A DNA stretch of 64,000 nucleotides, from NCBI GenBank assembly GCA_963716145.1, contig OY970292.1, positions 661,171-725,170 on the forward strand, written 5' to 3'. The translations under genes and the position numbers were made by a program. A model generated the notes under the pieces. The model was not told the DNA's origin. It ran no database searches and was given only the letters and a program-made list of their open reading frames with translations. Origin of the DNA: Candidatus Levyibacteriota bacterium. Lineage in GTDB: Bacteria; Patescibacteriota; Microgenomatia; Levybacterales; UBA12049. Positions 1,881 to 59,505 of this stretch are shown piece after piece (the first letter of the stretch is position 1; each line of letters starts with the position of its first letter).

Positions 1881-3876
1881 TGCGAGCGCAGTATATCCTC
1901 TACTCCTAAACCCAGTCGGCGGCAACGTGGGCATCGGGACTACGAATCCTGGTACAACACTTGATATTGTCGGAACATTGAGAGTCTCAAGTTCTATAGT
2001 ACAAGGTGGAGCGGCAAATAATGGTATTGGAGAAGCCCAAATATCAGGCGTTCAACTCGCGCTATCTACAGCAGGTGCTGCGAGAAATGCACTCGCTCTC
2101 CGTGGATCCGCTTCTCAAACTGCGGATCTTCAGCAATGGCAGGACAGTGCGGGTGATATCGCGGCAAGCATGGGGCCAATCGCTGCCGGCAATCAGCGCC
2201 AACAATTTTTACTCTATAACACCCTTGAAACAACGCCTACCAATTATGAACGATTAGGTCTCTATGCTGACTCAACGAACAATATATTCAGAATTGATGC
2301 ACAAAATGGAGGAACGGGAACCCTTCGTAATTTAACCCTTCAAACAACCGGCGGCAATGTGGGGATTGGGACCACTGCGCCAACCTATAAATTATCTACC
2401 CTCAACTCTATTTCAACTGCCGGATCTGCTGTCTCTGCCATTACCAACACAAATACTACAGACAGTGCCAACACTGTAACTTTGAGGCTGAATACAGGTG
2501 CTACCTCCACCACAACTAATGCTCGTTTCATGACCTTCTATGCAGGCTGTACAACCGAAAACTGTGCAGGGACAGCGGTTGGAAATCTTCAGCTTAACAA
2601 CAATGCGGTACAACTAAATTCAGGAACCGCTGATTTTGCCGAGCGCTTCCCAGTAAGTGAATCAACAGAACCAGGAGACATCATAGGTATTGGTACCGCT
2701 GGTAACAGAAAAGCCCAAGCAGGAGATAGTTTGCTGGGAGTTGTCTCAGATACTGCCATAGTTGTAGGAAATTCTCCGGAAGGCGTTGATAAGTCAACTA
2801 ATCCTGTTGTCGGCCTTGTCGGTCAGGTCAAGACCAAAGTCTCAACAGTAAATGGTGAAATCAAAGCCGGTGATTTAATTACAGCAAGCGGCACACCGGG
2901 AGTTGGTATGAAAGCAACCCGCCCGGGAGCTATTATCGGTAAAGCGCTTGAATCATTCTCAAATGATGGAATCGGAAAAATACTAATCTACGTCAACTCC
3001 TCCTACGCTGATCCGCAAGGAGCTCTCGCTAATCTTTTCCTTGATGAAGGCGGAAACTTAGTTCTTCCAGCCAACACCAAAAGCGCAAACGCTGATCTGG
3101 GCCTGCCTCTTATTGCTTCTCCCGCAAATAATAATCCTGCCTCCCCCATCCTAAGTAAAACCGAAGGGTTTAATCCGGAGGAGTTTAATCAAAGAATTGC
3201 AACCAGTTCAGCGCACTTAGATGTCAGCAGTCAGTTGTCAGAAATCAGCAGCCAAACAGATAACCTTAATTCTAAAGTGGCTTCCGTAGAAGCTGAGCTT
3301 AAACTTTTAACTTTAAACTTTGGACTTTTAGCTAATCCTGCCTCCAGCTCTGCTCAATTAGGCTTAGACCCTGGCAACGCTACTTTCTCAGGAGATCTAA
3401 GTGTAGGAGGACGTACAACGCTTTCAGACGTTGGAATCACAGGAAAGATGAATATTGGCCTACTTGCAATTGAGGGACTATCAGAGAACGGTTTCGCGAC
3501 CATTAACACCACTTCTGGTCCTTTGAAAATCCAATCAGATGGACTCAACGGCATAGATATTCTTGATGGAAAGATTGTGATCGAACCCTCAGGCAACATG
3601 AAAGTTAATGGCGAGATTACTGTTAAGAAGGTAAATGTTGATACTGCTGAGGTAGCTTCAGCCTCGCTTGGTACAGCTATTCTTCCAACCGGCGAAAACC
3701 AAGTTGTAATTAATTCAACAGCTATAACTGATAAATCCAAAGTGTTTGTCACCTCAGAAACAGATATAGACTTACCGCTTAACGTAGTAAGTAAAACTGA
3801 TAAAAAATCCTTTACTGTAAAAATCAAGAACTCCCAGCAGGAAGATGTTAAGTTCAATTGGTGGATCGTTAATTAA
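1807..3876 (+). CDS. Giant repeat protein, C-terminal part (probably continuation of 3-1880 across a frameshift); carries a conserved ~150-aa domain (..FYAGCTTENCAGTA..ADFAERF..GDIIGIG..) and ends NWWIVN
   Basis: Overlaps the previous ORF by 74 nt in another frame and has no signal peptide of its own. Shares the GNVGIGTTxP repeat and a central domain with ORFs 9325-12009 and 17001-19646. Its C-terminus (NWWIVN) matches 9325-12009 (NWWIIN). Confidence 0.65.
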   Translation: MVWILARVVRVHLGSGFQSKTTSINASAVYPLLLNPVGGNVGIGTTNPGTTLDIVGTLRVSSSIVQGGAANNGIGEAQISGVQLALSTAGAARNALALRGSASQTADLQQWQDSAGDIAASMGPIAAGNQRQQFLLYNTLETTPTNYERLGLYADSTNNIFRIDAQNGGTGTLRNLTLQTTGGNVGIGTTAPTYKLSTLNSISTAGSAVSAITNTNTTDSANTVTLRLNTGATSTTTNARFMTFYAGCTTENCAGTAVGNLQLNNNAVQLNSGTADFAERFPVSESTEPGDIIGIGTAGNRKAQAGDSLLGVVSDTAIVVGNSPEGVDKSTNPVVGLVGQVKTKVSTVNGEIKAGDLITASGTPGVGMKATRPGAIIGKALESFSNDGIGKILIYVNSSYADPQGALANLFLDEGGNLVLPANTKSANADLGLPLIASPANNNPASPILSKTEGFNPEEFNQRIATSSAHLDVSSQLSEISSQTDNLNSKVASVEAELKLLTLNFGLLANPASSSAQLGLDPGNATFSGDLSVGGRTTLSDVGITGKMNIGLLAIEGLSENGFATINTTSGPLKIQSDGLNGIDILDGKIVIEPSGNMKVNGEITVKKVNVDTAEVASASLGTAILPTGENQVVINSTAITDKSKVFVTSETDIDLPLNVVSKTDKKSFTVKIKNSQQEDVKFNWWIVN

Positions 3877-38884: not shown

Positions 38885-38913
38885 TTGACAAATGTAATAA
38901 AATTTGATACTAT
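38885..38913 (+). promoter_or_regulatory. Strong sigma70-like promoter TTGACA-N17-TACTAT with extended -10 TG, reading into non-coding sequence
   Basis: ttgaca aatgtaataaaatttga tactat read directly; no ORF follows for >300 nt. Confidence 0.4.
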
Positions 38914-39254: not shown

Positions 39255-39404
39255 TTGGCCAACGGAGTCTTTCCGGCCAATCACCAACCAGGAAAACGGC
39301 GGAAGAGCAAGAAGCGCAAGAAGCGCGAATTGAAGGGAACCAATAAGGGCCAGAAAAAGGTCTACGTGGTCGAATCCGGAAAGGTAATTAGCTTCAAGCC
39401 TTAA
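39255..39404 (+). CDS. Small highly basic protein (49 aa, TTG start) with strong Shine-Dalgarno
   Basis: ggaaggaggtg 6 nt upstream of TTG; translation (M)ANGVFPANHQPGKRRKSKKRKKRELKGTNKGQKKVYVVESGKVISFKP; not in the ORF track because it is under 60 aa and has a non-ATG start. Confidence 0.3.
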   Translation: MANGVFPANHQPGKRRKSKKRKKRELKGTNKGQKKVYVVESGKVISFKP

Positions 39405-39533
39405 CGGCGGAAACGATTTTTGCATGAGGCAATACAAACAGGCGCCCCGAACAATCAGCAGGAGCTGAGCGTCTGAGCCTACAGGGCAAAATGGGAATAT
39501 GCGTAAACCAACGAGAAACGAGGACACACAGTC

Positions 39534-40607
39534 ATGGCAACACTCGAAGAAGTACGGCAGTGGACCAACAATCAGGCTCGCAGTCTGCAGGAACTGCAGG
39601 ACGCGGTTGCCGGATTCAGGAACCTCGGCTTCACCATTCCCGCCGGCGCGCAGACCATCGACGGACAGCGCGACAGCCTGTACCGTTTCATCATGGCGCA
39701 GCCCAACCTGCACGCAGCCTCGCCCTGGACGCCGCCCGGAATGAACCCCGGACTGCCCCAGACGCAGACCACGCAGCAGCAGGGTTCGCCGGCTCCGGCT
39801 CCCGTGGACGACCACGACGAGCCCCGCAGGAAGTTCAACCCTTGGGCCATCGCCGGAATCGCGGCGGGAGTCATTGCGTTGCTCTTCGGGGCCTACCTGC
39901 TCGGAAACCGTGACACCAAGGTGGTGACCGGTGTACCGGCAGCAGCCCCCGCCCCGGCACCCGCGGCTCAGCAGCCGATCGTTGTCGTCGCTCCTCCCTC
40001 GGGGGGTGCGCCGGCCGGCGCTTCGGCGGCTACGGCAGCAGGCTCGCCCCAGGTCCAGTCCGTGGTTTCGGCTTCCGGCACCCCCGCTTCGGCGGCGGTC
40101 GTGACGGCTCCGTCGGCTTCCTGGGGCCGTGCGACGTCAAGTCGCTGGGTGGCAACTGGGTCCCCGCGGAAGCCAACATGTGGAAGTACGCCGGTCCGGC
40201 GAGCACCATCACGGTGCCCGCTTCGGGTCCGACGTGGGTCATCGACCACGCGCTCGGCTCGATCACCAACGGCATGTCCGTGACCACGGGTGTGGCCACG
40301 GCCTACTGCCTCGGTGGCGGTACGGCCACGGCGGCTCTCGGCCTCCGGCACCATCGCGGCCACGACCACGGCCACGGCGGCTCCGGCCTCGGCTTGCCCC
40401 GGCACCTCGGACCAGGCGGCCAGCCTGCTCGGCGGCAACGCCAGCAGCTGGACGACCCTCCCCGGCAACGGGTGGCACTACAGCGGTACGAGCACCACGG
40501 TGAAGCACCCCGGCTTCGGGCGTGTCGACTACGACGGTGGGAACCTTTCCACCGCCGGGACGACGAGCCCCGCCGGGATCCAGTTCACCTTCTGGTGCAA
40601 CGCCTAG
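39534..40607 (+). pseudogene. High-GC membrane/secreted Ala-Pro-rich protein gene, apparently disrupted by two compensating frameshifts (frames 0 -> 2 -> 0)
   Basis: ORFs 39534-40283, 40178-40627 and 40290-40607 form one continuous sensible reading only if frames are switched near ~40120 and ~40290. TM segment WAIAGIAAGVIALLFGAYLL. Confidence 0.45.
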
Positions 40608-40722
40608 CTCCGCAGTTCCAACCATGAGGTGTGTGACGGTGGATCCGTACAAGAGTTGCGCCCCCCTGGGCCAACTGTGCGGTGAAGCCGTCACGCTCTC
40701 ACAAACGAGGAAAGAAGGAAAG

Positions 40723-41259
40723 ATGCAGAGAAGGACAGTCCTAACCACAGTCATGCTCGCCCTCGCGATCTTCGCGGGAGCTTGCGGTGACTCCGATGAC
40801 AAGTCCACGACGGACAACACTGTGCCCAGTGCCGTCGTCCAACCCGTCCCGACCATCGTGCAGCAGGCACCGACGAGCCCCGCGCCCACCGGCGCCACCA
40901 GCTCGGCCTGCATCAGCACCACGGAGGTTAACTCGCTCACTCAGAGCGACCTCCACCGTGTGGGGGGTGAGGCTTGCGCCTACACCCTTCGGGTCGCCGC
41001 TGTGGGCAACACGCCCGTCGTCTGCGCTTCCGTTCTGATCTGCACCCTGTCCTTCCAGGATGGGATTCGGGTCTACATCGGCGATGGCACGCAGTACACG
41101 GGCGTCCTGGCAGGAACGGTGCGATTCGTCGCTGCCTATCCCGCTTGGGACACCCCGCACAACGCGTGCGCGCAGACCGCGGCAGAGGACCTGTTCGGTC
41201 AGCAGCAAGTTCCACCCTTCCACGTCGTGGCAGGGAACTTCAGCTGCACTCGCGCCTGA
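40723..41259 (+). CDS. High-GC lipoprotein (lipobox LAIFAGAC-G), actinobacterial type
   Basis: MQRRTVLTTVMLALAIFAGACGDSDDK.. with SD aggaaagaaggaaag upstream; flanked by ~42-nt direct repeats. Confidence 0.5.
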   Translation: MQRRTVLTTVMLALAIFAGACGDSDDKSTTDNTVPSAVVQPVPTIVQQAPTSPAPTGATSSACISTTEVNSLTQSDLHRVGGEACAYTLRVAAVGNTPVVCASVLICTLSFQDGIRVYIGDGTQYTGVLAGTVRFVAAYPAWDTPHNACAQTAAEDLFGQQQVPPFHVVAGNFSCTRA

Positions 41260-41549
41260 CCTGAGAACCAGGAGAGTGACGGTGATCCGTACAAGAGTTG
41301 CGCCAGGTGGCCAACTAGTACGGTGATCCGTCGCTCTCCCCTCAGGATTCTTCTGAGCAAAATGACACAAGTCGTCAGACTTGGAAATTCTCGTCGAATG
41401 CGATGGGAAAAGAAGAGGCTGACACGAGTGTCATGGAGATGTGAGAGCATCAAGGGTACGGTTAGTACAGAAGATTTGCAGCATGCGCTGCGCTTATATT
41501 TTCTGGCTTTGCCTTCCCTTGGAGTTTTCCATTTTCCCACTTGTGTGCC

Positions 41550-41618
41550 TGTTTTCGTTTACCGGTCAAACCGGTACTGATGAGTCCTTCGGCTAACGCT
41601 CAGGACGAAACGAAAGTA
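41550..41618 (+). ncRNA. Candidate type III hammerhead ribozyme
   Basis: 5'-UGUUUUC-GUU|-[stem I hairpin UACCGG ucaaa CCGGUA]-CUGAUGA-[stem II G UCC uucggcuaacgcuca GGA C]-GAAA-C-GAAAGUA-3'. Both conserved core strands (CUGAUGA and GAAA) are present, three stems close correctly, and a GUH cleavage triplet (GUU) sits before stem I. Confidence 0.55.
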
Positions 41619-41694
41619 CTTGAAATTAAAGAGAATATGTTATAGGATACAAGGTAATTAATTAAACTTAGTACTTATAATAATTAAATAAAAT

Positions 41695-42478
41695 ATGAAA
41701 ACAATATCATTTATCATACCTGTATATAACGAGGAAAAAAGACTGTATAAAACTCAGGAGGCTCTGATGAAGCTGAAGCTTCCCCGTGGTCTTAAGCTTG
41801 ATGAAATCATCTTTGTGGATGATGGCTCAAAAGATAAGACTGTAAAAAGTATCCGCTACTTTATTCATGTTATGAAAAAGTACAAAATCCAAAAAGGTGC
41901 CAACTATAGAGTTATTAAATATTCTCAAAACCAGGGCAAAGGTTACGCAATAAGACGCGGTATGCTTGCGGCCCGCTCTGACTACGCTCTCTTTTTTGAT
42001 GCCGATATGTCAACTCCTCTTAAAGAGCTTAATCATTTCATGGAGTATATTAAGCAGGATGTTGATGTGGTGATCGGGTACCAGAAAACACAAAGACTCC
42101 AAGGTTATAAGAAGCCAATCAGTGTTTCGTGCCAAATTGGGTCAGGGATTTACGCTAATGACAGGAACATTGCTTGGAATGGATTTGACTGATTACACCT
42201 GCGGATTTAAAGCCTTCTCAAAAAACGCCAGGATTGCTATATTTGCCAATTGTCAAATCAACAGATGGGCATTTGATGCTGAGATACTTTATCTTGCGCA
42301 CAGATATAAAATGTCTATCGCGGAAGTACCTGTTGTCTGGAGAAATGACGAATACACCAAAGTTAAATTGCACAAAGATGTGCTCTTAACACTTCTTGAC
42401 CTTTCAAGAATAATCGGCTTGCACATAATTGCTCCCGCTCTTTCCTTTCCCAAAAGGCAGGTTGCCCTATCCGCCTAG
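41695..42478 (+). pseudogene. Family 2 glycosyltransferase (dolichyl-phosphate mannose synthase-like), split by a frameshift near 42120-42190
   Basis: ORF 41695-42192 carries ..IIPVYNEE..VDDGSKDKT..GKGYAIRRGM..FFDADMS..; ORF 42122-42478 in another frame continues with ..DYTCGFKAF..FDAEILYLA..; together they make a typical GT2. Could be an assembly indel. Confidence 0.6.
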
Positions 42479-42689: not shown

Positions 42690-43940
42690 ATGCCAAGCTT
42701 AGTTGTCATCTCTAGTTACCCACCTCGTGGGACGACCCATCATAAAAGTGTTATTGGGGGAGCGTCCTACACCAAAAATACCCTGATTGCCCTCGAAAAA
42801 GAAATTCGCGCGCGAGGTGAAACTCCTGACATAACAGTACTTGCTCAAAAAATAGATGGCTCTGAGGCATCTTATGATGACGAAGGCATCGGAGTAAAAA
42901 GGATCTGGGAACGCAACTCTCTTCTTACCTTTAGCAGGCTTTACAAAGAAATTATTAGCAACCACAGGCAGACAAAAGAAATCCTTATTGAGCTGGAACT
43001 GAATATTTTTGGAAAAAGCGGAATATTTCTCATCCTGCTTATTAACTTTATTTACTCCCTGAAATTGCTGAACAAAAAAGTAATTTTGGTAATTCACGAG
43101 GTTATTTTTGATATGGACAAATTCGGGCCTCACATAAATCTTAAACAGAAAAGTCTCAAGACAGCATTTTATAATTCCGGACTAAGCATGTTCTATAAAT
43201 CAATATTGAAACCAGTGGACAAAGTTATTGTTTTTGAGCAAAGCCTAAAGGAAAAGCTGGCAGAAATAACGGGCCAAAAAAATAAAATTAGTGTCATCCC
43301 GATTGCTGTTGAGAATATCAAAAATGTTATTTCCAAAGCTGAAGCAAGAACCAAGTTGGCAATTCCAAAAAATGATTTTGTAGTTATGACTTTTGGGTTC
43401 TTGGCATGGTACAAAGGAACCGATTGGATAGCTGAAGTATGGCCCAATAGCGCAGCGCCCTTGCGCTTAATTATAGCGGGAGGTGCCAATCCCAACCGCA
43501 TGGAACTTCCCTACTATAAAAAGTATTTGGAAGAGCTTGAAACTATTGCACGGGAAAAAGACATAACTTTAACAGGATTTATTCCTGAAGAAAAAATGCA
43601 ATTATACTTTGCTGCAAGCGATATTGTAGTCTTCCCCTACCGAACCATGATGTCATCAAGCGCTGTCCTGTCAATGGCTTTTAGCTTTGAAAAACCATTC
43701 CTGCTTTCCGAAAACATGAGACAAATCTTCCTGGGACAAGATATGAAAGAAGAATTGTTATCTTCAAATCTCAAAGAAGAAGACGTGCTTTTCCCGCTTG
43801 ATAACTCATTTGGTAAAAAAATTAAAAAGGTAAAATATGACTTAGAGCTGCTTAAAAAATTGGAACTTTTTTCCAAAAAAATGAAGGACAAGAGATCATG
43901 GAATTTAATCGGCGGACAATATTATGAAACATTTTTTTAA
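42690..43940 (+). CDS. Family 1 (GT-B, GT4-like) glycosyltransferase
   Basis: C-terminal half ..FVVMTFGFLAWYKGTDW..LIIAGGAN..ITLTGFIPEEK..ASDIVVFPYRTMMSSSAVLSMAFSFEKPFLLSE.. fits the GT-B sugar-donor domain. Confidence 0.6.
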   Translation: MPSLVVISSYPPRGTTHHKSVIGGASYTKNTLIALEKEIRARGETPDITVLAQKIDGSEASYDDEGIGVKRIWERNSLLTFSRLYKEIISNHRQTKEILIELELNIFGKSGIFLILLINFIYSLKLLNKKVILVIHEVIFDMDKFGPHINLKQKSLKTAFYNSGLSMFYKSILKPVDKVIVFEQSLKEKLAEITGQKNKISVIPIAVENIKNVISKAEARTKLAIPKNDFVVMTFGFLAWYKGTDWIAEVWPNSAAPLRLIIAGGANPNRMELPYYKKYLEELETIAREKDITLTGFIPEEKMQLYFAASDIVVFPYRTMMSSSAVLSMAFSFEKPFLLSENMRQIFLGQDMKEELLSSNLKEEDVLFPLDNSFGKKIKKVKYDLELLKKLELFSKKMKDKRSWNLIGGQYYETFF

Positions 43941-46900
43941 AAAATATTGGGCAATTTTAATACTTTTGGGCTTTGTGGTCTTGCTTTTTGTGACCAATTA
44001 CCGCCCGGGTACTATTTTAAGCGGCTGGGACAATCTCCATCCTGAATTTGATTTTGGTCTTAATATCAAGCGCTCAATTTTTGCAGTCTGGCAGGAATAT
44101 CAAGGGCTTGGTCTTCTTGGCGGCATGGCACACAGCACTGATCTTTTAAGACAAATCTTTTTATTCATTCTTTCACTATTTTTACCAAATGATTCCCTGC
44201 GCTACATCTGGACATTCCTGATGCTTTTCACTGGATCTGTTGGTTCGTATTTTTTAATAAAGTACGTCCTAAATTTCAGAACCCTCAGAAAACTCGGTGA
44301 ACCGGAAAATCAGACCCGTCAGACTGTCAGACATTCTGATAGTCCGGCTTCTGAGTATTCTGAGTTTTCCGGAAAAGAAAATGCCAACAAACTGATTCCT
44401 TTTTTGGGTGCTTCCTTCTACCTTCTCAACCTTGCAACTATCCAGATGTTTTATGTGCCTTTCGAATCATTTATCGGGTTTTTTGGATTTCTGCCATGGG
44501 TGCTATTATCATCCATTATATTTTTCCGGAAACCGGTCAAAAAAAATCTGCTTTTTCTTGTTTTAATTCTACTAATAGCAACTCCCGCCTGGTATCTGCA
44601 AACGGTATTTATCGTTTTTATAATCGCATTAAGTATCATACTTCTCCCCTCCTTACTAAATAATTTCAAACCCGGATCAATTATAAAATTGGTAAAACTT
44701 TATGGCATAATTTTTCTTGTAAATAGCTTCTGGCTACTCCCAGCTACGTATTTTACACTCACTAATTCTGACGTAAATCTCAATTCCAAAATTAATCAGA
44801 TGGCAACCGAGACAATTTTTCTTCAAAATAAGGAATTTGGGACGCTGCCTGATGTAATGCTCCTCAAGGGATTTATGTTCAAAGGCGTTGATCCCAATGC
44901 GCAGGGAAACATTACATATATGTTAAAGCCTTGGAGTGATCACTTGAACAATCCTTTTGTCGCGGTTGCGGGTCTTTTACTTTTTGCAGTTGTATTTATA
45001 GGCTTTATCAAAGCTATTCGAACTAAGAACCCTGCTTTGCAGGGCTTTGCGCTGCTTTTCATATTTTCATTTATTGCGTTAGCTGTTGATACTCCGCCAT
45101 TTTCTTTTATAAATAGTCTTCTGAGGAATAATATCCGCGTACTTAATCAAATCTTCCGTTTTCCTTTCACAAAATTCGCTACACTCGCAAGCCTTGTATA
45201 TGCAATTTTATTTGCAGTTGGAATACAGACGGTAGTCAAAAAATTAGAATTAAGAATTAAGAATCAAGAATTGAGGTTTAGTAACCGAAAATATCCCTTC
45301 TTGCTTCTTACTTCTTGCTTCTTACTTCTGATCATCTTTGCGCTTCCCGTCTTTCAGGGTCACTTATTTTATGATAAAGAAAGGGTTATAATTCCCACTG
45401 AATACAAACAACTGTTTGCTTTTTTCAAATCAAAAGATCCGAATACCAGAATTGCCAATTTTCCCCAATCCAACTTCTGGGGATGGAGTTTTTATAACTG
45501 GCTTTCCTCACCTAATCAAGGCAGGCCCGGAGGAGACTATGGCGGCTCAGGATTCCTCTGGTATGGAATAAAACAACCGATTCTTGATAGAGCATTTGAT
45601 GTTTGGTCAACAAATAATGAAAATTATTATTTTGAAATTACACAAGCATTGTACAGCAAAAATAATGCACTTTTTGAAAAAGTTTTGAATAAGTACCAAA
45701 TTAATTGGCTGCTGGTTGATAAAAATATTTTTGACTCTTCATCAAGTAAGGCACTATTTATTCCGGAGCTTGAAGAACTATTGGCGAATTCTTCTTTGGC
45801 CAAAAAAGAAGCATCTTTCGGAAAGCTTCAAGTATACAAGATAAACCTGACAGACAAGCCCAAAAACTATGTATATATGACCAAAAATCTGCCTGTTGTG
45901 AATGAATACAAATGGAACAACTTTGATCAAGCCTATTTTGACAATGGAAATTACATTTCAAGAAACGGGCAGGAAGCAAAATCCAATAGCCAAACTTATC
46001 CCTTCCGCTCCCTCTTCACATTAAAAACTCAGAACGAAAAAGAGTTTGAAATAAAAGAAGAACCCGCGTCTATTGCGTTTATAAACAAACTTCCCGTTAA
46101 ATCAGGAAGCACACTTATACTTCCCTCTTTTACCCAAAAAGAAAAAATAATCCCAATCCACATAAAAACACTAAGAACCGCAAGTGGCACCCCGAAAATC
46201 GAGGCACAAGTCCTACTTCCTCAAATAATAGTTGGCAACCGGGAGCTGCAAAAAAATACAGGTCCGGTTTTTCAAGCTCAACTTCCGCCTTTTAAAAATG
46301 ACCAATATCCTCTCACCTTGAATATAAATGGAGCGAGCTACTCACCCATTTCAAATACTGATAAGGATATAGGTGTTGCATTCTTCACTCTTAATTCATC
46401 AAATACCATAACGGTCTCAGATAAGACCAAAAGAGGTATAAGTAACGTTGTTTTTCCTTTGGAGACTATCTCCCGCCTTCAGACAAGTCCGTTATTTATC
46501 AATGTGGGAAATACATCAAATCAGTACATAACAGTAAGGTTTCCCAAAATAGATGCAAATTACTTGACCTTCCGCCCGCTTCTTAACAGTGCTGACAGCG
46601 TCAGAAACTGTGACAATTTCAATGGAAAAAGTTTTTCATCCAAAATCATAGACGACAGCTCTTTGACCCTAAGCTCGCTCGGGGCTACTGCATGTACTTC
46701 ATTTTTCGCTCAAAATCTGCCTCATGATCAATCTTTTGCAATTTTTATAAATAGTAAAAATATACAAGGCCAGGGACTTCGCTTCTGGGTGGAAAACACC
46801 AACCAGCAATCCGTACCGATTGATACATACCTTTCAAAAGAAAAAAATCTAGTTACAAGTTCATTTATCCTACCTGCAATGGAGCAATTCGGAAGTTCAT

Positions 46901-47445
46901 ACGCGTTTCACTTCTATAATTCGTCCATCGGACGGGATAAAACAGTAAATGAAATAGGAAGATTTGCCGCTTACCCGGTATTCTATAATTACTTAAAATC
47001 AATAAAGATAACTGCCGGCCAAAATACTGCAGGCAGTTTGACTGACACTTCCAAGATGGATGTCTCACATCCAAACGAAAGTAAGTACGTTATTTCAATG
47101 GAAAATGGAAAATGGCCAGTGGGAAATAATACAACCCTTGTCCTCTCTCAATCTTTTAATCCCGGCTGGAAAGCCTACGCAATTTCAAATTTCAAATGTC
47201 AAATGTCAAATTTCAAATGCGCGGTAGCCCAAGCCTTTCCTTTTATTTTTGGGAAGGAAATCAAAAATCACGTTATGGTAAATAACTGGGAAAATGGATG
47301 GGTTCTCAGTGATCCGCAAATGGCAAATGGCAAATGGCAAATGGTAATTGTTTACACCCCCCAGTACCTTGAATATCTTGGATTTGGATTGTTGATTTTG
47401 ACACTATTTGGCATAATTATCCGATCAAAGTTTTCGAAAACTTGA
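43924..47445 (+). CDS. Large polytopic membrane protein (1173 aa), putative GT-C-fold / YfhO-like envelope glycosyltransferase; contains in-frame short tandem DNA repeats
   Basis: ~13 TM helices in the N-terminal 500 aa then a large extracytoplasmic domain. DNA tandem repeats at 45244-45275, 45296-45330, 47186-47221 (ttcaaatgtcaaatg..) and 47318-47345 (caaatggcaaatgg x3). Confidence 0.4.
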   Translation: MKHFFKKYWAILILLGFVVLLFVTNYRPGTILSGWDNLHPEFDFGLNIKRSIFAVWQEYQGLGLLGGMAHSTDLLRQIFLFILSLFLPNDSLRYIWTFLMLFTGSVGSYFLIKYVLNFRTLRKLGEPENQTRQTVRHSDSPASEYSEFSGKENANKLIPFLGASFYLLNLATIQMFYVPFESFIGFFGFLPWVLLSSIIFFRKPVKKNLLFLVLILLIATPAWYLQTVFIVFIIALSIILLPSLLNNFKPGSIIKLVKLYGIIFLVNSFWLLPATYFTLTNSDVNLNSKINQMATETIFLQNKEFGTLPDVMLLKGFMFKGVDPNAQGNITYMLKPWSDHLNNPFVAVAGLLLFAVVFIGFIKAIRTKNPALQGFALLFIFSFIALAVDTPPFSFINSLLRNNIRVLNQIFRFPFTKFATLASLVYAILFAVGIQTVVKKLELRIKNQELRFSNRKYPFLLLTSCFLLLIIFALPVFQGHLFYDKERVIIPTEYKQLFAFFKSKDPNTRIANFPQSNFWGWSFYNWLSSPNQGRPGGDYGGSGFLWYGIKQPILDRAFDVWSTNNENYYFEITQALYSKNNALFEKVLNKYQINWLLVDKNIFDSSSSKALFIPELEELLANSSLAKKEASFGKLQVYKINLTDKPKNYVYMTKNLPVVNEYKWNNFDQAYFDNGNYISRNGQEAKSNSQTYPFRSLFTLKTQNEKEFEIKEEPASIAFINKLPVKSGSTLILPSFTQKEKIIPIHIKTLRTASGTPKIEAQVLLPQIIVGNRELQKNTGPVFQAQLPPFKNDQYPLTLNINGASYSPISNTDKDIGVAFFTLNSSNTITVSDKTKRGISNVVFPLETISRLQTSPLFINVGNTSNQYITVRFPKIDANYLTFRPLLNSADSVRNCDNFNGKSFSSKIIDDSSLTLSSLGATACTSFFAQNLPHDQSFAIFINSKNIQGQGLRFWVENTNQQSVPIDTYLSKEKNLVTSSFILPAMEQFGSSYAFHFYNSSIGRDKTVNEIGRFAAYPVFYNYLKSIKITAGQNTAGSLTDTSKMDVSHPNESKYVISMENGKWPVGNNTTLVLSQSFNPGWKAYAISNFKCQMSNFKCAVAQAFPFIFGKEIKNHVMVNNWENGWVLSDPQMANGKWQMVIVYTPQYLEYLGFGLLILTLFGIIIRSKFSKT

Positions 47446-55881: not shown

Positions 55882-56113
55882 CTAAACTGAACTTATCTGC
55901 CCGCAAAGAAACCTTCTTAAAGGAGGTTTTTTTGTAGCGTATTTTTCCACCAAAAAACCGCCCTTGCTGGCGGTTTTATTGGATTCTTTTTTTGCCCAAA
56001 AGCTTTCACGAAGGACATGTCCTGTACAAAAAGCTGAAGATTTGAAAAAAGAAAATTCCTGGCGATGACTTATTGTCCCATAAATAAATACAGTATCGTA
56101 GGCGCTGGCATGT

Positions 56114-56144
<31 letters not shown>

Positions 56145-56235
56145 GTGCCACACCGCACAAATCACCAGAAAATTTCTTTTTTCAAAGTGCTAACTTAGCT
56201 TCTTAACAAGTGAAGAGAAACGTCTTAAAAATTTA

Positions 56236-59505
<3,270 letters not shown>

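Follow-up and report, generated by a model that had tools for sequence, protein, structure and literature searches.

Locus and Hammerhead Motif

The window analyzed here is a 64-kb stretch of DNA from a Microgenomates-like bacterium of the Candidate Phyla Radiation (CPR), and the element under study is a complete type III hammerhead ribozyme motif on its plus strand. The motif stands between a block of GC-rich open reading frames (ORFs) and an operon that opens with the gene of a GT2-family glycosyltransferase (GT2), followed by that of a GT1/GT4-family glycosyltransferase (GT1) and probably by that of a large protein (Table 1). Read along the plus strand, the motif has the order UGUUUUCGU-U-UACCGGUCAAACCGGUA-CUGAUGA-GUCCUUCGGCUAACGCUCAGGAC-GAA-ACGAAAGUA, and three helices meet at its junction: stem III (UGUUUUCGU/ACGAAAGUA), stem I and stem II.

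Table 1. Features of the hammerhead motif and of its surroundings in the window
Feature	Position	Strand	Remark
Coupling-ATPase-like protein of a type IV secretion system (T4SS), 769 aa	36175-38484	-	conjugation-type
High-GC ORF1	39534-40607	+	39534-40283, then 40290-40607 after a frameshift
High-GC ORF2, lipoprotein-like	40723-41259	+	C-terminus ...GNFSCTRA; co-oriented gene immediately 5' of the ribozyme
Long imperfect hairpin after ORF2 (69 nt)	41271-41339	+	compensatory changes in L020
Conserved stem-loop between ORF2 and ribozyme	41362-41434	+	consensus fold of window and L020, compensatory pairs
Complete type III hammerhead ribozyme	41550-41618	+	stem III open; stems I and II capped
Stem III, 5' strand UGUUUUCGU	41550-41558	+	9 bp with 41610-41618, G-U pairs included
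Position 17, U; predicted scissile bond 41559/41560	41559	+	allowed NUH (H, not G)
Stem I hairpin UACCGGU-CAA-ACCGGUA	41560-41576	+	7 bp by descriptor
Core strand C3-A9, CUGAUGA	41577-41583	+	type III core (C3-U4-G5-A6-N7-G8-A9)
Stem II GUCCU/AGGAC, 13-nt apical part UCGGCUAACGCUC	41584-41606	+	5 bp by descriptor
G12 A13 A14, then stem III 3' strand ACGAAAGUA	41607-41618	+	
GT2 (polyprenyl-phosphate glycosyltransferase-like), downstream of the ribozyme	41695-42478	+	Pfam PF00535, 3.4e-25
GT1, second gene of the operon	42690-43940	+	query for related loci
1173-aa protein, N-terminal half apparently hydrophobic	43924-47445	+	overlaps the GT1 stop

Every element of the type III architecture is in place. 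In stem III, UGUUUUC occupies 41550-41556, G41557 and U41558 are also paired, and the opposite strand continues from C41611 into GAAAGUA (41612-41618). U41558 is U16.1 and pairs with A41610, which is A15.1, such that the GAAA at 41607-41610 comprises G12-A13-A14 followed by A15.1. The core-adjacent pairs 1.1-2.1 and 10.1-11.1 are present. The original prediction, made from the sequence alone, had drawn stem I as UACCGG-UCAAA-CCGGUA over the same nucleotides (41560-41576); all of its stem and core coordinates were correct, as were the full set of core nucleotides and the allowed NUH site. The minimum free energy (MFE) fold of 41545-41625 resembles the three-way junction (-24.2 kcal/mol, z = -2.1).

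Statistical Support for the Motif

The Rfam model Hammerhead_3 (RF00008) aligns to the motif over its full span (model positions 1-54) with 35.8 bits and E = 4.8e-6 in a 601-nt search. The Rfam gathering score, which is a database convention and no biochemical criterion, is 48.5 bits; the motif lies below it, and the site is therefore missing from a gathering scan of the whole window. The comparison with Rfam proposed alongside the original prediction had a divided outcome, with the gathering score missed, a significant E-value, and a strong match to a family-specific model. The penalty has two sources, loop I, which is longer, and stem II, which carries a 13-nt insert, and is explained by the range of stem II in the family described below, which extends from a 4-nt loop to an insert of ~57 nt. 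The hammerheads of two related loci, L020 and L021, are likewise under the gathering score.

The score below gathering would be in keeping with a chance resemblance lacking any function, and this explanation was confronted with shuffled sequence and with a model that had not been trained on the motif. A loose descriptor (exact CUGAUGA and GAAA, stems of at least 4/3/3 bp, H17) matched one of 300 dinucleotide shuffles of the window, and no match among the 300 was obtained when the descriptor was made as strict as the observed motif. Covariance model R2 was built from 12 relatives, with the window and L020, its closest relative, left out. In a search with filters off, the sole significant match of R2 in the 64 kb was 41554-41614, at 44.5 bits and E ~ 4.7e-13, and the runner-up reached 12.7 bits (E = 0.12); the E-values of R2, and of model R1 below, are only rough because calibration was short. 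With these results and the synteny in 15 other distinct loci, the probability of a chance resemblance becomes negligible, and the comparative data by themselves effectively refute it. The earlier judgment that such a motif would be unlikely by chance is borne out. A second, weak descriptor match in the window, at 55981-56058 beside the 5S rRNA gene, has a CUGAAGA core and A/U stems; the covariance model did not recover it, and it was set aside as a chance match.

Hammerheads at the Head of Related Operons

Related loci, designated here by L numbers, were fetched from genomes (18) and metagenomes (80), all 98 of them centered on the GT1 gene. A first pass, by pattern scan and then by descriptor, revealed complete type III hammerheads directly upstream of GT2 in several of these loci. 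When the native ribozymes were aligned with MAFFT, the stems came out misaligned, and fixed-length seeds with model-based realignment were used instead. Covariance model R1, built from the fixed-length seeds, was applied to both strands of the window and the 98 loci (830 kb). It returned 18 matches at E <= 3.3e-8, every one on the operon strand, and one additional weak, doubtful match in L045. De-duplication (L080 = L012) left 17 distinct ribozymes in 16 distinct loci, the window included. Fifteen of the 17, among them that of the window, sit 0-254 nt upstream of a GT2 homologue, with the exception in L020 that the ribozyme immediately precedes a 71-aa ORF that itself precedes GT2. The other two are both from L033, where hammerheads at 200-273 and 1103-1164 lie farther upstream in the same cluster, on either side of a 125-aa ORF upstream of the glycosyltransferase operon. 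Since genomic position played no part in the selection of hits, the clustering before GT2 is independent evidence, and its recurrence at this site in at least 15 related genomes argues that the hammerhead belongs to the operon and not to a foreign or mobile element.

There is considerable variability in the spacing between the end of stem III and the next start codon. The spacer is 0 nt in L011, 1 nt in L012, L021, and L024, 2 nt in L025, 3 nt in L001, 8 nt in L003 and L027, and 10 nt in L005 and L020 (to the 71-aa ORF in the latter), such that 10 nt or less separate stem III from a start codon in 10 of the 17 family members. Longer spacers are observed in L009 (43 nt), L068 (43-61 nt), L033b (69 nt), L072 (96 nt), L007 (151 nt), and L033a (364 nt). 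In the window, where ~75 nt had been estimated, 76 nt separate the last paired base, 41618, from the GT2 start codon at 41695.

The short spacers raise the alternative of a translational gate, in which stems III and II would hold the Shine-Dalgarno (SD) and start region until cleavage frees the short stem III and turns translation on. In keeping with such a gate, the 3' strand of stem III is often SD-like (AGGGG, AGGGA, AGGUA, ACGGGG) and lies 4-8 nt before the AUG, and partition-function folding predicts that cleavage raises the accessibility of the ribosome-binding site (RBS) in L001 (0.28 to 0.63), L012, and L020. The same calculation predicts no such rise in L003, L021, and L025, and the spacer of the window is AT-rich and has no SD sequence. 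At its distance from an SD-less start codon, the window copy leaves room for gating at most as a lineage-specific extra, and as the general explanation of the element it is unlikely.

A scan of 13 related loci at Rfam gathering scores, examined for another ribozyme class that might substitute for the hammerhead, returned rRNA and tRNA only. In L008 (9040-9160) and L010 (3440-3560), which have no hammerhead, a different conserved structure precedes GT2, CACACGCGAUCCUCCGAUGAGGG...CGCGUGUG, followed by a hairpin that pairs AAGAGAA just 5' of the AUG; this structure has no Rfam match at gathering. A hammerhead-like motif also precedes GT2 in L069 (~3130-3190). It has CUGAUGA and good stems I and II, and it deviates in having GAAU and A at position 16.1, which amounts to a swap of the 15.1/16.1 pair. 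This motif, which escaped the covariance model, may be inactive or a variant.

Conservation and Covariation of the Family

In the model-fitted alignment of the native sequences, 98.1% of cells are in standard pairs, versus 33-49% in controls with slid partners. Changes on both sides are found for 12 of the 15 stem pairs, which amounts to helix covariation of the kind on which the original prediction had been staked, although there is some circularity in these counts, the hits having been selected with a descriptor and a model that take structure into account. Two observations stand outside this circularity. First, the stems diverge almost freely around a fixed core: U16.1, CUGAUGA, G10.1/C11.1, and GAAA are invariant, save that L027 has UUGAUAA where the 16 other members keep CUGAUGA. 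Second, synteny supports the family helices independently of any pairing-aware selection. L027 has the double change U3/A8 in its core, by which the tertiary pair C3-G8 is preserved; this covariant occurs naturally and is active (PMC3088659). Position 17 is C, U, or A across the 17 members and never G.

The closest relative, L020, has intergenic DNA 76% identical to that of the window and an identical stem I; its stem III carries a compensatory G-C to U-A change. Stem I differs, with compensatory changes, in all members other than these two. As noted by eye, stem II of the window (41588-41602), L007, and L033a has a common insert, CCUUCG(G)CUAA.GCU.CAG, and L003 and L072 also share a conserved stem II insert. 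Such subgroup-conserved inserts could be modules for tertiary contacts or ligand binding.

The window copy might nonetheless be a decaying or inactive one, homologous to real ribozymes and no longer of consequence in a frameshifted locus. Both GT2 and ORF1 are split by frameshifts, and the motif has U17 in place of C17. U17 is, however, used by five family members, the core and the three stems are intact throughout, and the GT2 frameshift, located near 42077-42085 by comparison with the L020 homologue, falls in a GGG run, as is typical of assembly error. The ORF1 frameshift (40283-40290) reflects either an assembly indel or a real pseudogene. Decay of the ribozyme is thus very unlikely.

GC-rich Genes Upstream of the Ribozyme

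The block at ~39450-41400 reaches 60-73% GC versus a window average of 41%, with abrupt changes at 39.4 and 41.4 kb. At third codon positions, the island ORFs have 72-90% GC and the genes of the glycosyltransferase operon 36-41%. ORF1 and ORF2 have no Pfam family match, and accordingly no reverse-transcriptase or integrase domain. The gene set recurs at the same place in relatives. ORF2 is 56% identical to an ORF of L020 (44-619; 79% GC at third positions) and 55% identical to its counterpart in L021; with weaker homologues in L075, L046, L049, L086, L005, L024, L009, and L073, it is represented ahead of GT2 in at least 10 loci. ORF1 recurs through its C-terminal domain in L024, L074, L021, L025, L001, and L081/L082. 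Island homologues in related CPR loci have a GC content of 50-68%, and nearly all relatives show a rise of 10-25 GC points over the remainder of the locus in the 1-1.5 kb before GT2. Among 5.8 billion proteins searched, only two relatives were found, at 62% identity, one of them on a GC-rich contig (L099, 57-66%) beside a gene for an intact 381-aa ORF1-related protein. An actinobacterial origin of the island was considered and dropped, as the protein search yielded two relatives on GC-rich contigs and no donor lineage.

The original prediction had placed the ribozyme directly after a foreign high-GC island. The high-GC block is there; its foreign nature did not survive comparison, because the homologues in relatives have the same position and orientation and are likewise GC-elevated. 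Judged from these sequences, the island is a conserved, compositionally odd gene set and no recent import, its composition having been maintained over long divergence. The island genes have diverged to the same extent as their neighbors and have nonetheless remained GC-rich. A long leader before the island contains a 49-aa, very basic ORF with a TTG start and a strong Shine-Dalgarno sequence, GGAGGTGA (39255-39404, plus strand), for which an NCBIfam search found no match.

The same comparisons bear on the further suggestion that the ribozyme is part of a small mobile or retro-element, and on the related possibility of a prophage remnant, either of which would have brought the high-GC island with it. 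Bacterial hammerheads are often phage-linked (PMC6155905, PMC3088659), and the abrupt GC changes and the repeated hairpins after the island ORFs would suit an insertion. Against this, the island ORFs and the ribozyme are syntenic in relatives so divergent that GT2 is 46-57% identical over its first ~130 residues. Retrozyme-like circles need two hammerheads, and the 64 kb contain a single one. The ribozyme is not bounded by direct repeats, the only repeats being the hairpins after the island ORFs. These ORFs have no Pfam domain, and the neighboring gene encodes the conjugation-type coupling ATPase. A scan of viral contigs for the specific motif of stem I, core, and stem II gave 0 matches. The hammerhead tracks GT2 instead, and a mobile origin appears very unlikely indeed.

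RNA Structures and Transcription Signals

The region 41255-41700 is strongly structured (z = -9.0). In addition to the two elements listed between ORF2 and the ribozyme, a sister copy of the long hairpin follows ORF1 (40633-40694) and has an exact 21-mer, GATCCGTACAAGAGTTGCGCC, in common with it. A similar hairpin is also seen in the tail of L099. Two readings of these structures were rejected. A long hairpin at ~41405-41555, envisaged as an off-switch that sequesters the 5' strand of stem III, is present in the MFE fold of the window and absent from the consensus of window and L020. An attC/integron-cassette reading of the island hairpins found, by eye, no R''/R' core sites.

The best sigma-70-like site of the region, TTGACA-17-TACTAT with TG, lies ahead of the island at 38885-38913 (plus strand) and is a candidate start of a transcript spanning the island into the ribozyme. 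Upstream genes are co-oriented in those loci where an upstream ORF can be called, and most are followed by hairpins that have no U-tract, which makes read-through plausible. A TATAC(T/C)-like motif is observed 3-4 nt 5' of stem III in L005, L007, L021, L025, L033b, and L024, and is not present in the window or L020; if it were a -10 box, transcript starts would fall inside stem III.

The conserved hairpins also suggest that the selected role of the ribozyme could be that of a 3'-end maker for the upstream mRNA of the GC-rich secreted proteins, which would be ended and stabilized by cleavage as its cyclic-phosphate end is trimmed to the hairpins, any effect on the glycosyltransferases being incidental. 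Co-oriented GC-rich ORFs followed by large conserved hairpins do lie upstream in most loci, and the extreme structuring of the intergenic region would fit. The spacing points the other way, as the distance to the upstream stop is variable (100-300 nt) and that to the downstream start is often 0-10 nt, and loci with GC-rich genes that have no hammerhead are common. This explanation is regarded as quite improbable.

Proposed Role of Leader Cleavage

Taken together, the motif, its statistical significance, its occurrence at a single syntenic position, and the contrast of variable stems with an invariant core identify a family of hammerheads at the head of this operon. The most probable explanation is that 41550-41618 is a canonical type III hammerhead that forms part of the leader of the GT2-GT1-large-protein operon in Microgenomates-like CPR bacteria, ancestral and conserved within the lineage, and that its self-cleavage separates the glycosyltransferase mRNA from upstream RNA. 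From this arrangement we infer cleavage itself, transcription that runs through the ribozyme from upstream, and an effect of cleavage on expression.

In the proposed sequence of events, plus-strand transcription would carry the ribozyme together with upstream RNA, either as read-through from the co-oriented GC-rich secreted-protein genes or as a long leader. The RNA would fold into the three-way junction and cut itself after U41559. The upstream product would have a 2',3'-cyclic phosphate end and could be trimmed back to the hairpins, and the downstream product would be the glycosyltransferase mRNA with a 5'-OH followed by the compact fold of stems I and II. The fate of this mRNA, in stability and translation, would thereby be uncoupled from the upstream RNA, and the mRNA would gain a defined, structured 5' end as with the engineered insulator RiboJ. 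Read-through with cleavage after U41559 is the most economical inference, and processing of a read-through transcript, as originally suggested, is compatible with everything found.

Several points weigh against this assignment. In addition to the score below the gathering threshold and the partly circular covariation counts, a loop-loop tertiary contact between stems I and II, which fast cleavage at physiological Mg2+ requires, was not identified, and U17 (GUU) is a slower cleavage site than GUC in minimal hammerheads. The frameshift in GT2 results from decay or from an error of assembly. The ribozyme is preceded by a terminator-like hairpin with a U-run (41477-41492) and followed by a weak promoter-like site (41620-41648, 9/12 matches), such that little transcription could cross it. 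Finally, the ribozyme is carried by ~16 of the ~50 distinct loci that have a GT2 homologue and enough upstream sequence, and it is therefore dispensable for the operon.

A more specific proposal, put forward tentatively, is that the hammerhead is a native insulator or gate long kept by CPR bacteria at a cell-envelope glycosylation operon. It would split a GC-rich, hairpin-stabilized surface-protein mRNA from the AU-rich glycosyltransferase mRNA, fix the 5' end of the latter, and license translation where the start codon is abutted. If so, these hammerheads would be among the first in bacteria to have a regulatory role that is defined, conserved, and cellular rather than phage-related, and the ribozyme would be linked to the lineage-wide GC elevation of the upstream genes.

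Glycosyltransferase Operon and Other Genes of the Window

All NCBIfam matches of GT2 are under their cut-offs. The best relatives of GT1, at 28-46% identity, come from Levyibacteria, Gottesmanbacteria, Shapirobacteria, Woesebacteria, and unclassified Patescibacteria metagenome-assembled genomes; the depositor labels of some of these assemblies differ. The 1173-aa protein has no family match in Pfam or NCBIfam and is probably the product of the third operon gene. Look-ups of the exact products of ORF2 and GT2 found no contigs on record.

The window also carries 23S rRNA, 5S rRNA, and tRNA genes, and no 16S gene was found within its 64 kb. Its typical CPR-looking gene set includes a Rho homologue with a long N-terminal extension. 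The 23S rRNA match (56227-59503, minus strand) spans 3277 nt versus a model of 2925 positions; the ~350 extra nucleotides may represent an insertion or intron such as those reported for CPR rRNAs.

Comparison with Known Systems

The family has the hallmarks of type III hammerheads (RF00008, clan CL00010): CUGAUGA and GAAA, G10.1-C11.1, A15.1-U16.1, H17, an open stem III, and capped stems I and II. It differs from the Rfam family in that the copies of the window, L020, and L021 score below gathering, mainly for their longer loop I and stem II, and in that the host of the window is a CPR bacterium and not a viroid, satellite, or plant genome. Retrozymes and other circular or retro-elements bearing hammerheads also have type III ribozymes, but these come as two copies in direct repeats and without a tie to any one host gene. 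The window shows neither feature: R2 found one match in it, and the homologues in the GT1-centered loci occupy the same syntenic site.

Type I and type III hammerheads are found in bacterial intergenic regions, where their role is open and many are phage-linked (PMC6155905), and most known bacterial examples are in prophages beside variable, unnamed genes (PMC6155905, PMC3088659). Bacterial and prophage hammerheads have been proposed to cut polycistronic RNAs (Perreault et al. 2011, PMC3088659), and an HHphage variant lies 13 nt before the start codon of a helicase (PMC3088659). Similar to these, the present hammerheads are intergenic, co-oriented with flanking genes, and near a start codon; the L033 pair flanks a small ORF, and the U3/A8 core covariation occurs in both groups. 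Unlike the prophage examples, they belong to a chromosomal glycosyltransferase operon that is conserved across many species and whose genes are not variable. In the window, the neighbors are the T4SS coupling ATPase, secreted proteins, and glycosyltransferases, with no phage or integrase gene among them.

A functional parallel is offered by RiboJ and related engineered insulators, which set the type III hammerhead of sTRSV between promoter and RBS; in E. coli, RiboJ increased protein 2- to 10-fold and mRNA ~2-fold (PMC6206723). In both cases a type III hammerhead stands directly upstream of an RBS and ORF, and cleavage, here by prediction, takes off the upstream RNA and leaves a structured 5'-OH leader (PMC6206723). 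The window element is natural and does not have the added 23-nt hairpin, and the relationship is one of functional analogy, not homology. In the glmS ribozyme, the 5'-OH cleavage product determines the fate of the mRNA. Like glmS, the hammerhead of the window would cleave itself within the leader of a gene for cell-envelope sugar metabolism; the two folds are different and unrelated.

A full-text literature search found hammerhead ribozymes never mentioned together with the Candidate Phyla Radiation, and the 15 papers listed under Patescibacteria-group terms made no mention of hammerheads either. Annotation at the Rfam threshold overlooks hammerheads of this family in CPR genomes. The hammerhead class is known, and the conserved cellular, non-phage gene context is new: in many divergent CPR genomes, 17 natural variants are found at the same fixed cellular site, at the start of a glycosyltransferase operon. 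The concrete hypothesis that results is that leader cleavage sets mRNA stability or translation.

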